Shown here piece by piece: positions 6,480-31,330 of a stretch of 37,623 bases of DNA; positions within the stretch are counted from its first letter, which is position 1, and each line of letters opens with the position of its first letter. The translations under genes and the position numbers were made by a program. The stretch is from Candidatus Fermentibacterota bacterium (GTDB taxonomy: Bacteria > JAFGKV01): assembly GCA_016928395.1 (NCBI GenBank), contig JAFGKV010000057.1:1-37623 (forward strand). Direction: 5' to 3'. Under the pieces are notes generated by a model. It was not told the origin of the DNA, did not search any database, and saw only the letters and a program-made list of their open reading frames with translations.

Positions 6480-6499
6480 CTATTCTCACGTGAGAATAG
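6480..6499. promoter_or_regulatory. Perfect 20-bp palindrome CTATTCTCACGTGAGAATAG, motif copy 2
   Basis: Read directly. Lies between convergent genes ending at 6174 (+) and 6646 (-). Confidence 0.5.
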
Positions 6500-23481: not shown

Positions 23482-23916
23482 GTGAGTACGTTTGTACGTC
23501 GTGGCGAGCGCGGAATCTCCCGAACCTGGGTGATCGCCAGCATGATTGTATTCCTCATGACAGAACTCGTGATAGGTACCGTCGTGGGCAGCCTCTTCGC
23601 CGGCCATCCCGGTCATGTGGTCCACATGCGCATCGAGATGCTGGTGATGCTGGCCAGCTACTTCGTCGGCGGGTTGGTCATGGGCTTTGTCTCCCGGGGC
23701 TCGCGGCTGGATGAGCCCATCATCGCCGCATTCCTGGCGGTGGTGATCACGTTCTGCCTGACCTTGTTCACTCCCCTGCGATTCTTTCGCTTCTCAGTGA
23801 CTCGCGTTCTCATCGGCGGCGTCATCGCCGCCGGCTTCGCGGTGGCGGGAGTTGACCTGGGGGCGCGGGCCGCAGCCGGGCTCAGTCGGAGAACACACCG
23901 GGACGGGAAGGGCTGA
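23482..23916 (+). CDS. Small membrane protein (~4 TM)
   Basis: Four hydrophobic segments; GGGGAG before GTG; directly follows the coiled-coil gene. Confidence 0.7.
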   Translation: MSTFVRRGERGISRTWVIASMIVFLMTELVIGTVVGSLFAGHPGHVVHMRIEMLVMLASYFVGGLVMGFVSRGSRLDEPIIAAFLAVVITFCLTLFTPLRFFRFSVTRVLIGGVIAAGFAVAGVDLGARAAAGLSRRTHRDGKG

Positions 23917-24045
23917 GCATTGTGAGGAACGACACCAGGCCCGGCCTCGATCGCAGGAGGTGCACCAATCGCATGCCTGAGCCTCTGGGAGGCCGCGGGC
24001 GTGGCCCCCTTCCCGGTTGCCATGCGAACCCATTCATGAAATCCC

Positions 24046-24073
24046 GGAGCTATTCTACTAGTAGAATAGCTCC
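24046..24073. promoter_or_regulatory. Perfect 28-bp palindrome GGAGCTATTCTACTAGTAGAATAGCTCC, motif copy 3, upstream of the RAMP gene
   Basis: Read directly, ~70 bp upstream of the likely start. Flanked roughly symmetrically by ATTCAT (24032) and ATGAAT (24083). Confidence 0.6.
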
Positions 24074-24144
24074 CCACACCGTATGAATCACCAATCCTCC
24101 CGTCGGTGGGCACTCTTCCCACCGCACACCCGAAGGGGCTGGTA

Positions 24145-25230
24145 GTGAAACGACGTCGAAAGCCATCGCAAAGGGGGCGAACAACCAAGACTCGATCCTC
24201 AGTGGAGGCGCCTGCCTTGGTGCTGGATCTGAACGTTCTCTCCCCTGCATTCGTGCCCGGCGGCCCCGGCCGTGAATCCGCTGGAATCCAGGCCTCCACC
24301 GTCAGAGACCTCCTGCGGTGGTGGTACAGGGCACTGGTGGGGCACGAGGCGGTCTTGGGTGTCACCGACGTGGATCTGGCTGAGACACGTCTGTTCGGAA
24401 ACTCCTTTCAGAGAGTTCGCTGCCCGCTCAAAATCCAGGTCGTACCGTCACGTTCCTTCGGCGTCATCCCCAGAGGCGAAGAACCGCCAAGAACCGGCGT
24501 CACCGTTCACGTCACGCCCCCGCAAGACGCCCTCATCTACCTTGCAGGTTCGTCAGTCACTCCGCTTTCGCGCGGCGAGCGCGATGACCAGGGCAAAGCG
24601 CTGGACCCGGCGTTTGACGACCCCGTGACAGGCAAGGCCCGGCGCGGACCCGTCTTGCGGCAGGAGGCCGTAACACCCGGATCACGGTTCGCGGTCCACA
24701 TCGGCTGGAAGCCAGGCGCCCTTGACGATCGCCAGATCGAAGACCTGGTCCGCTCGGCGGCCTCTCTTGTCACGCTGGGCGGCCTGGGCGCTCGAAGCCG
24801 CAAGGGATTCGGCGCATTGGCAGGGGATCTCGACGCTCTGCTGATCCCCGAGGCCCGCGCCTGGTGGGACTCACAAACATATGGCATTCTCCATGGCCCA
24901 CCCCTTTCGGCCGCCTCGGGATTCCCTCCCTTCCCATGTCTCGCCTATGCCATCGTGACCAGCGACCCACGCCTCTCCCCGACCTGGCAACAGGCATTGG
25001 GCAGGCTTGGGCGTCACTACGCGGCCATTCGGCCCAGGGAGACGGCGGCGTGGATCGCGGGGTCGGTCCGCCCGAAGAGGGAGTCATCCCTTCTTTTCAC
25101 CTTGTGCCGGGAACCTGGAGGCTACCGTGGAGTCGCGACGTTGATTCCCAGCCTGCCGGACGGCGAACACGCCGAGGAACTCGGCCGCTACGCCGCATCG
25201 TTCAAGGAATCCCCCTGGCCTGAGGAGTAG
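24145..25230 (+). CDS. cmr1: RAMP-superfamily protein, Cmr1-like (type III-B CRISPR effector subunit homolog), solitary
   Basis: LSPAFVPGG, STVRDLLRWWYRAL, ETRLFG, the Gly-rich loop LGGLGARSRKGFGAL, and a C-terminal WQQALGRLGRHY...RESSLLF. Start uncertain (GTG 24145 after GAAGGGG, or 24106). Confidence 0.8.
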   Translation: MKRRRKPSQRGRTTKTRSSVEAPALVLDLNVLSPAFVPGGPGRESAGIQASTVRDLLRWWYRALVGHEAVLGVTDVDLAETRLFGNSFQRVRCPLKIQVVPSRSFGVIPRGEEPPRTGVTVHVTPPQDALIYLAGSSVTPLSRGERDDQGKALDPAFDDPVTGKARRGPVLRQEAVTPGSRFAVHIGWKPGALDDRQIEDLVRSAASLVTLGGLGARSRKGFGALAGDLDALLIPEARAWWDSQTYGILHGPPLSAASGFPPFPCLAYAIVTSDPRLSPTWQQALGRLGRHYAAIRPRETAAWIAGSVRPKRESSLLFTLCREPGGYRGVATLIPSLPDGEHAEELGRYAASFKESPWPEE

Positions 25231-25445
25231 CACAGCCCCGATCGCGTGCGCAGTCATGGCGATGTCGTCATGCCAGTCGTCAGGTGCTCCAATTGCGGGC
25301 TGCGTCCCGGTCTTCTCCCGGTGATCCGACAACCTGTGCTGCATCGCTCGGAGTGACGGCAAAGTACCCTCCACGTGCCGAGGAGCGCGGATGTCCTTAT
25401 GTCATGATGCAGGAAAGGCCTCACCGCTCTCGGCGGTCGGGCTGC

Positions 25446-26018
25446 CTACTTCATGCCGAGCCTTGTTCCCTTGGCCAGCACATCGGCCACCTGCTTCATC
25501 CTGCGAACCCGTGTCTCTTCTCTTTTCGCTTCGGCCACCCAGCTTAGGTACTGACGGCGATGTGACGGCGGAAGCCGCTGGAAGTGTGCCCACGATGCCG
25601 GGTTCTCCTCAAGAATCGCCATCAGCTCCTCAGGCACCGTATCCACCCTAGGAGGTGTGTGGACGAGGCCCTCAGTCTCGAACTTCACCAGAGCATCACC
25701 GAGCATCGCGAGGCCTGCTGCGGTCATCTGCCCCTCATCGATCATTCTTCGAGCACGCCGGAGGTTCAGCTCCGACCATGATCCTCCCATCCTTCGGGGC
25801 GTGAACTTCTGCATGAATGTGCTGTCGTCTCTCCGCTTCCGGATCCCATCAATCCACCCGAAACAGACAGCTTCCTCGACCGCCTCGTCGTAGCGAAGAC
25901 CCTGCTTTCCCGTGCGCTTCTTCTCGAAGACGACCCACAGCTCATTGTGGATGGCGTGATTGGCGGTTAGCCACTCCCGCCATCCCTGGCGGCTCTTGAA
26001 ACCCTGTGCTTCGCTCAT
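25446..26018 (-). CDS. YdeI/OmpD-associated family protein
   Basis: WREWLTANH, YDEAVEEAVCFGWIDG, FTPRR..SWSELN, GQMTAAG, WVAEAKREETRVRR. Confidence 0.9.
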   Translation of the reverse strand: MSEAQGFKSRQGWREWLTANHAIHNELWVVFEKKRTGKQGLRYDEAVEEAVCFGWIDGIRKRRDDSTFMQKFTPRRMGGSWSELNLRRARRMIDEGQMTAAGLAMLGDALVKFETEGLVHTPPRVDTVPEELMAILEENPASWAHFQRLPPSHRRQYLSWVAEAKREETRVRRMKQVADVLAKGTRLGMK

Positions 26019-31256: not shown

Positions 31257-31282
31257 GGGAAAGAGTCATGGAGTGGAACGAA

Positions 31283-31330
31283 TGGAACGATGGAATGGTG
31301 GAACAATGGAATGGTGGAACAATGGAATGG
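31283..31330. repeat. 8-bp-period tandem repeat (TGGAANNN)x6 inside the operon
   Basis: tggaacga tggaatgg tggaacaa tggaatgg tggaacaa tggaatgg, followed by a loose ~7-bp-period tract to ~31378. Confidence 0.75.

Follow-up and report, generated by a model that had tools for sequence, protein, structure and literature searches.

A solitary, remodelled Cmr1-family RAMP protein in Candidatus Fermentibacterota, probably kept for a role outside the Cmr complex

Cmr1 caps the effector complexes of type III-B CRISPR systems, at the 3' end of the CRISPR RNA. The subject of this study is a gene for a Cmr1-like RAMP protein that stands alone in a 37,623-nucleotide stretch of DNA from a Candidatus Fermentibacterota bacterium (GenBank assembly GCA_016928395.1, contig JAFGKV010000057.1, positions 1 to 37,623 of the forward strand), the whole of which was analyzed and is termed the window. 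The gene occupies 24145-25230 of the forward strand (361 amino acids from GTG 24145, with the stop codon included in the coordinates). It had been described in an initial annotation as an intact and diverged stand-alone homolog of Cmr1 that may be repurposed or may act in trans on a distant Cmr complex. The first part of this description is upheld by the present analysis, which finds the gene to be under purifying selection and repurposing to be its best reading, while action in trans is not favored.

The gene, its family and its fold

The open reading frame (ORF) of the RAMP gene spans 24070-25230 of the forward strand without interruption and carries the Cmr1/RAMP hallmarks attributed to it, with the motifs, such as ETRLFG, present as previously written. 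All of its features lie on the forward strand. They begin with an Arg/Lys-rich N-terminal tail (24145-24216), which the structural model predicts to be disordered and which is clade-specific by comparison with relatives, followed by a first RAMP (RRM) domain (24229-24819), defined by a Pfam match and the model, and a second RRM-like domain (24817-25209; residues ~238-368 in a 374-residue numbering), for which the secondary structure of the model and full-length matches to two-domain Cmr1 chains both argue. The motif of helix alpha-1, V-R-D-L-L-R-W-W-Y-R (24301-24330), retains the Arg, Trp-Trp and Arg positions in the alignment and has a conservative change at V66. The glycine-rich loop GGLGARSRKGFG (24778-24813), a hallmark of RAMP proteins, is also conserved in the alignment.

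By sequence profile and by structural model, this is a protein of the Cmr1 family with a predicted two-RRM Cmr1 fold and its glycine-rich loop. The protein matched the Pfam RAMPs family (PF03787, E = 1.4e-11), the PADLOC Cmr1 model (1.1e-12) and, marginally, the NCBIfam model of Cmr1 (TIGR01894, 29.4 bits against a cut-off of 28.65), and the PADLOC models that it matches are those of Cmr1/Csm3 and not Cas7c. An AlphaFold2 model built on a 93-row alignment reached a predicted local distance difference test score (pLDDT) of 92.5 and a predicted template modeling score of 0.87, with residues 1-30 alone being disordered (pLDDT 48-67). When the model was compared with the PDB by Foldseek, Cmr1 chains came first (9l7c_A at 6e-15, then 4l6u, 4w8x and 6s6b_J), these top four alignments extending over 356-385 columns, and Csm3/Cas7 chains ranked after them. 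A family profile (alignment A2) searched against PDB sequences likewise retrieved 4l6u (1.2e-25), chain I of 9z7q, designated 'Cmr1-MntA' (1.6e-25), and 4w8x (6e-19). The best structural matches are therefore with Cmr1 of A. fulgidus (AF1868; 4l6u, 9l7c), P. furiosus (4w8x) and S. islandicus (6s6b chain J), and the window protein resembles these type III-B chains in its two-RRM fold, glycine-rich loop, Arg/Trp-aromatic/Arg motif of alpha-1 and overall length. The prediction of a homodimer from two copies gave no answer (score 0.00), which counts neither for nor against binding.

Three candidate starts are found for the ORF, GTG 24106, GTG 24145 and TTG 24217. The second, which was the start used in the initial annotation, has AAGGGG 9 nt upstream, and the third is preceded by a GGAGG site, making it a credible alternative. 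The ortholog from the same genus starts with an ATG that has a Shine-Dalgarno-like site (GAGGTG) and aligns with 24145, and all of its starts that preserve beta-strand 1 take in most of the basic tail. It is likely, although not certain, given TTG 24217 and its GGAGG site, that the basic tail of the window protein is real.

There is a hint that the gene is transcribed. In a metatranscriptome library from the probable source study of the genome (Logan contigs), one 240-nt contig is identical to 24910-25149, which is the only part of the RAMP gene covered by contigs of that library, the uncovered parts being uninformative, and two further contigs fall on neighboring genes. The gene is thus present in an RNA library, where carry-over of DNA is possible. 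Scanning of 23850-25500 gave no sigma-70 promoter and no intrinsic terminator, a result that is uninformative because the promoters of this phylum are unknown. Separately, short DNA contigs of a different sediment study (run X3) match 24820-25142 of the window with 3-5 letters off per ~150 nt, four of the six listed in-gene differences being at third codon positions, and a close relative of the gene therefore exists elsewhere.

Solitary state and descent

The 23 other larger ORFs of the window, when scanned against Pfam, proved to be metabolic, envelope-related or without a match. They include matches to a TRAP transporter, a radical-SAM enzyme, a glycosyltransferase, a phosphorylase, PLP-dependent enzymes, uridine kinase, dihydropyrimidine dehydrogenase and dihydropyrimidinase-like genes, YdeI/OmdA, DUF1848, a TPR protein, DUF4159, a C25 peptidase and a nitroreductase, and, among those without a match, a coiled-coil protein and a small membrane protein. 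No cas10/cmr2-6 operon genes lie within 24 kb upstream or 12 kb downstream of the RAMP gene, and neither a CRISPR-like tandem repeat nor an Rfam match was found in the window. The statement that the flanks hold no cas genes or CRISPR array is hence borne out by Pfam, repeat, Rfam and cas10/cmr3-6 hidden Markov model (HMM) scans.

The search was extended to the metagenome-assembled genome (MAG) that contains the window (G000; 343 contigs, 94% complete). PF03787 gave a single match in it, the window gene, which is the sole RAMP found, and the profiles for Cmr2 (TIGR02577), Cmr3 (PF09700), Csm1 (TIGR02578) and Cas6 (PF01881) gave none. HMMs for cas10, cmr1 and cmr3-6 were custom built from 134 loci with relatives of cmr1 (54 from genome contigs and 80 from metagenome contigs) and were run against the 44,876 six-frame ORFs of G000, where the cmr1 model matched the window gene only and the cas10 and cmr3-6 models had no match. 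Thus, no cmr operon lacking its cmr1 was found in a genome that is 94% complete. The gene differs in this respect from type III-B cmr1, as it is without cas10/cmr2-6 partners and no type III genes were found in its genome.

The one CRISPR system found in G000 is of type I-C. Contig C168 (437-8582) carries a complete cas3-cas5c-cas8c-cas7c-cas4-cas1-cas2 set beside a tRNA gene, together with an array, seen by eye, of which the contig end leaves the first repeats only. Given a complete Cascade and an array start in the same genome, the solo protein could be imagined to co-operate with it, but the I-C set is complete and self-sufficient without the solo RAMP gene and lies on a separate contig, and a second genome has the solo gene but no Cas1 match. 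Cmr1 is not known to be linked with type I complexes, and this explanation has next to no probability.

The second genome (G001) is a same-genus MAG titled Candidatus Eisenbacteria (82% complete, ~500 contigs), and profile searches found one RAMP only, the ortholog, and no Cmr2, Csm1, Cas6 or Cas1. Across the three genomes of the GTDB phylum set, the gene is present in G000 and G001 and absent from G002, which belongs to another genus and is 98% complete. The main rival to exaptation is that a cmr operon is missing from both MAGs, in which case the protein would be an ordinary Cmr1 that has been displaced and acts in trans for a Cmr complex whose genes lie on an unbinned contig, a plasmid or an island, much as the initial annotation had envisaged. 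Since both genomes are fragmented and incomplete, such an operon could have escaped on unbinned DNA. Nevertheless, that Cas10/Cmr2, Csm1, Cmr3-6, any other RAMP and Cas6 all went undetected in two independent MAGs makes action in trans unlikely, subject to the caveat of incompleteness, and the properties of the protein itself, considered below, also bear on this question.

The solo gene belongs to a small clade. A search of 5.8 billion proteins returned seven matches, including the window's own, of which five have 53-85% identity and one has 35%, and an exhaustive search of representatives gave 351 matches with E <=0.001, 25 with E <=1e-10 and 17 with E <=1e-30. The close clade consists of six distinct proteins (P0001, P0003, P0004, P0005 from locus L071, P0006 from locus L010 in G001, and P0007), which are full-length, have no stops and are 53-85% identical to the window protein. 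P0003, P0004 and P0007 are encoded on contigs of 1.9-3.5 kb. Most relatives outside this clade are found with other cmr genes, at least one of which is present on the same stretch in 121 of the 134 loci. The 13 exceptions are the two solo-clade loci, L010 and L071, the former having no other cmr gene despite 10 kb of flank on each side, and 11 loci that touch a contig end or are on a short contig. Four of these 11 were inspected: L096 has CARF-, MNT- and HEPN-like neighbors (by eye), L086 is of the same type as L089, which has a full operon, and L118 and L147 are truncated on the side where the operon is expected.

The nearest relatives outside the clade (30-40% identity) come last in operons of the order cas10-cmr3-cmr4-cmr5-cmr6-cmr1, an arrangement that PADLOC recognizes in L011, where the genes run cas10-cmr3-4-5-6-cmr1-csx1 and a PrimPol is present as well. 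The closest homologs are operonic where they lie outside the solo clade and not operonic in the clade loci whose context is visible. These operonic Cmr1 proteins, of Thermoanaerobaculia/Acidobacteriota type (for example L011, L014 and L072-L085), align with the solo protein over its full length and fall in the same subfamily, but unlike it they are encoded in the last position of such operons, have only a few residues ahead of strand 1 and show isoelectric points of 9.1-10.6.

This subfamily was recovered in a quick maximum-likelihood tree of 35 rows, comprising the window, the 18 closest loci and 16 hand-picked distant loci of the 134, with L076 (cut by a contig end) and L082 (identical to L081) omitted. 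The three solo rows are monophyletic (approximate likelihood-ratio support, SH-aLRT, of 100). Their stem measures 0.96 changes per site, compared with a median terminal branch of 0.47, and the solo branch is nested in a group of 20 rows with a support of 99, inside which sister relations are unresolved. All of the other 17 rows of this group carry cmr genes on the same stretch, mostly as cas10-cmr3-4-5-6-cmr1 with cmr1 last.

Selection on the gene was estimated from the three coding sequences available. Pairwise ratios of non-synonymous to synonymous substitution (dN/dS, NG86) were 0.22, 0.13 and 0.15, values that are rough because dS is saturated (1.5-2.7) but that indicate purifying and not relaxed selection. 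This bears upon the possibility that the gene is a functionless leftover of a decayed type III-B locus, intact by chance. That possibility is in keeping with the genomic context. A block encoding a C25 peptidase, DUF4159, a 1068-residue protein, a TPR protein and DUF1848 is conserved in both genomes and the RAMP gene adjoins its DUF1848 end, but between G000 and G001 there is a break in synteny, the orientation of the RAMP gene to the block being inverted and the intervening gene being different. For this reason no conserved operon partner emerges across the window, L010 and L071, even though L071 and L010 have downstream genes in common, and the genes around the RAMP gene in the window (those for the coiled-coil protein, the small membrane protein, YdeI/OmdA and DUF1848) change from one ortholog to another. 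Six distinct full-length proteins without stops, the low dN/dS, clade-specific changes that are coordinated and shared, and 69 invariant columns, RAMP motifs among them, in an alignment (A1) of eight rows (seven distinct sequences, including the outside relative P0008) all oppose it, so that a decayed remnant is hardly credible.

Two observations concern the wider family. Genes of MNT/HEPN type flank some Cmr1 genes or are fused with them, as in the 'Cmr1-MntA' chain I of PDB entry 9z7q and in L096 (7948-11666), where by eye a nucleotidyltransferase-like ORF lies upstream of cmr1 and a HEPN-like ORF downstream. In L013 and L085, both of Acidobacteriota type, a cmr4-cmr5-cmr6-cmr1 module is tandemly duplicated in one locus, giving two copies of cmr1.

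Remodeling of the protein and its possible role

The features that set the solo clade apart were defined in an alignment (A3) of the window protein, five clade members and 87 other Cmr1 proteins from the two homolog searches, from which fragments, fusions of >600 residues and matches beyond P0108 were dropped. The glycine of helix alpha-1 (G68) is Gly in 87 of 87 other Cmr1 proteins and Asp or Glu in six of six clade members (Asp codon 24307-24309 in the window), such that the substitution before LRWW noted in the initial annotation is a property of the whole clade, and the otherwise invariant alpha-1 set I-x-G-x-x-R-W-F-x-R is only partly kept. Also replaced in the clade are E60, R62, R186 and R315, which are conserved elsewhere at 89, 91, 86 and 82%, respectively, while R324 has become Lys and A326 Asp or Glu. 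On the other hand, R71, W72/W73, R75, E93, F97-G98 and the glycine-rich loop are all retained.

These replacements are accompanied by a redistribution of charge. In clade members the body has a net charge between -6 and +6, compared to a median of +13 in the 87 others, only three of which are at or below +3. The very basic N-terminal tail that had been noted in the window protein is confirmed, with nine Lys and Arg in 24 residues, and basic tails recur in four other members of the clade for which the frame can be followed upstream (P0004, P0007, L010 and L071). The N-terminal extension of the 87 others has a median of three residues, and three tails in A3 carry +9 to +13. Relative to type III-B Cmr1, the solo protein thus has an acidic residue in place of the alpha-1 Gly, has lost arginines, and combines a near-neutral body with an Arg/Lys-rich tail.

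The likely consequences can be judged from a report on Cmr1-alpha of S. islandicus (PMC5737701). There, the Arg/Trp-aromatic/Arg face of alpha-1 grips the CRISPR RNA (crRNA) and the target RNA, a W58A/F59A variant is impaired in the capture of target RNA, and an I52A/G54A/R57A/R61A quadruple mutant is largely lost from the Cmr complex. The alpha-1 motif of the window protein was matched to I52, G54, R57, W58, F59 and R61 by residue spacing only, and on that basis the glycine that is acidic in the solo clade is one of the four residues changed in the quadruple mutant. The same report states that Cmr1 joins the Cmr complex through crRNA only and that Cmr2-6 form an active core without it (PMC5737701), which makes Cmr1 the most detachable subunit. 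Retention of the RNA-contacting alpha-1 residues and of the glycine-rich loop speaks for a subunit serving an undetected complex in trans. The acidic replacement of a glycine found in all 87 other proteins, the loss of positive charge, the gain of a new tail and the long stem branch add to the evidence against that explanation.

We therefore regard the solo protein as probably an exapted, domesticated derivative of Cmr1 that is kept for a role outside the Cmr complex. According to this proposal, an ancestor of the lineage (labeled Candidatus Eisenbacteria) would have come by cmr1, whether inherited or acquired, from a cas10-cmr3-cmr4-cmr5-cmr6-cmr1 operon of Acidobacteriota type, whose remaining genes were lost or never arrived, and the lone cmr1 would have been kept by purifying selection while it was remodeled. 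The fold with two RRM domains was retained, as were the glycine-rich loop and, on alpha-1, the face formed by Arg, Trp-Trp and Arg. The alpha-1 glycine gave way to Asp or Glu, several conserved arginines disappeared, the body gave up most of its net positive charge, and a tail rich in Arg and Lys, predicted to be disordered, was gained. The product may then be a monocistronic, stand-alone protein that binds nucleic acid, most likely RNA, outside any Cmr complex, with the tail supplying general affinity and the retained groove holding a few nucleotides. Binding of RNA through the retained groove and the new basic tail would be the most economical mechanism, and its mode must differ from that of complex-bound Cmr1, since most of the positive charge that typifies Cmr1 is gone from the body. 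The RNA-binding regulator suggested in the initial annotation may be pictured in these terms, with the same loss of charge as a reservation.

The proposal of a domesticated Cmr1 is subject to several considerations that weigh against it. Both genomes are fragmented MAGs, and the clade comprises just six distinct proteins, with a context that is visible for three. RNA binding could have been weakened and not retained, in view of the near-neutral body and of the acidic residue that the alpha-1 groove now contains. The saturation of dS leaves the dN/dS values rough, the tail of the window protein is less certain than those of its orthologs with TTG 24217 as a plausible start, and the RNA-library contig is no proof of transcription. 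No ligand, partner, conserved neighbor or flanking non-coding element was found.

A bolder form of the proposal, which we hold to be quite improbable, is an autonomous one-protein module that would bind a specific cellular or guide-like RNA by means of the alpha-1/glycine-loop groove and the arginine-rich tail. It would serve as a regulator, RNA-programmed or RNA-sensing, in a lineage that lacks type III CRISPR. If true, such a module would match the solo-RAMP logic of VIPR, in which a Vipr RAMP works with vrRNA (10.64898/2026.04.26.720920), but as a secondary derivative of CRISPR. Like Vipr, the solo protein is of RAMP fold and is encoded with no other cas genes or CRISPR array. That source presents Vipr as a single-RRM, early-branching and mostly phage-borne RAMP, associated with a vap gene and YNNGG-repeat RNAs, whose clade is separate from Cas5/6/7 (10.64898/2026.04.26.720920), whereas the solo protein has two RRM domains, is nested within Cmr1 and lies in what appears to be a chromosomal metabolic context with no YNNGG repeats nearby.

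The related explanation, that the protein is a one-protein RAMP effector using a small guide or ligand RNA of its own from another locus, the VIPR logic having been derived secondarily from Cmr1, is very unlikely. It draws on the precedent of solo RAMP proteins with non-CRISPR guide RNAs, as described for VIPR (10.64898/2026.04.26.720920), and on the retained groove residues and glycine-rich loop. Opposed to this are the two RRM domains and the position within CRISPR Cmr1, unlike Vipr, as well as the lack of an Rfam match in the window. Furthermore, no YNNGG run of at least four perfect units was found on either strand in the window, L010 or L071, a scan that did not include degenerate variants (NNNGG etc.). 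The intergenic spaces are also short (~230 nt upstream and ~215 nt downstream in the window, ~70 nt downstream in L071), and no conserved non-coding sequence surrounds the three orthologs beyond one weak 16-nt match (E 0.05). This match, at 23966-23995 of the reverse strand in the window, was rejected as a conserved element, since in L010 it falls on the start of a divergent GyrI-like gene; as an observation in its own right, its resemblance to the ribosome-binding site and start of that gene may make it a relic.

Class 1 CRISPR components have been exapted before. One review (PMC8730458) lists HRAMP of Haloarchaea, the Cascades of CAST elements and a STAND-associated Cascade, which involve several subunits (Cas5 and Cas7, and others) along with partner genes. 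The solo protein is like these modules in that a Cas effector protein is kept outside adaptive immunity and unlike them in being a single cap subunit alone. A full-text literature search, the coverage of which excludes subscription journals, returned no account of Cmr1 being maintained by selection on its own where type III systems are missing from the genome. If the domestication of the solo protein is confirmed, the detachable cap subunit of Cmr can lead an independent life. The protein would then be a small (~40 kDa), naturally simplified RAMP whose ligand could reveal how a RAMP groove achieves recognition without a complex, and the common change from glycine to an acidic residue and the loss of body charge are direct handles for mutational tests.

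The upstream palindrome and other repeats

A perfect 28-bp palindrome (24047-24074) lies in the gap that separates the RAMP gene from the membrane-protein gene upstream. The initial annotation had taken it for the gene's own upstream site. The palindrome is real, but with up to two substitutions allowed its 20-nt core (two 8-nt parts around 4 variable nt) is present at 86 sites in the genome. It is not found in L010, L003 or L071, and so is absent upstream of the ortholog. As one of 86 dispersed genomic copies, it is not a private operator of the gene. Core copies in the window are at 97-116, 6480-6499 and 24050-24069, the one at 6480 being between convergent genes. The family is AT-rich in a genome of 60-68% GC, with variable and mutually complementary GC-rich flanks, and its copies are potential hairpins of up to ~19 bp. 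A stricter search over 22 nt gave 13 genomic sites compared to none for a reversed control.

Other repeats were encountered in a genome-wide k-mer search for CRISPR arrays, where the candidates on contigs C198, C292, C338 and C280 were rejected as tandem or dispersed repeats without unique spacers. Those on C198 (1-320) and C292 (1-430) are three to five copies of a related ~85-bp unit at contig ends, without unique spacers, and are not CRISPR. The candidate on C338 (1-600) consists of ~93-bp repeats with a GAT/ACC/AGC-rich stretch and a conserved GC-rich, hairpin-like core, and is possibly a repetitive coding region. In the window itself, a tandem 8/16-nt repeat of TGGAACGA-like units, in up to 6.6 copies, lies at 31273-31330, in the short space between the gene for the 1068-residue protein and the DUF4159 gene.

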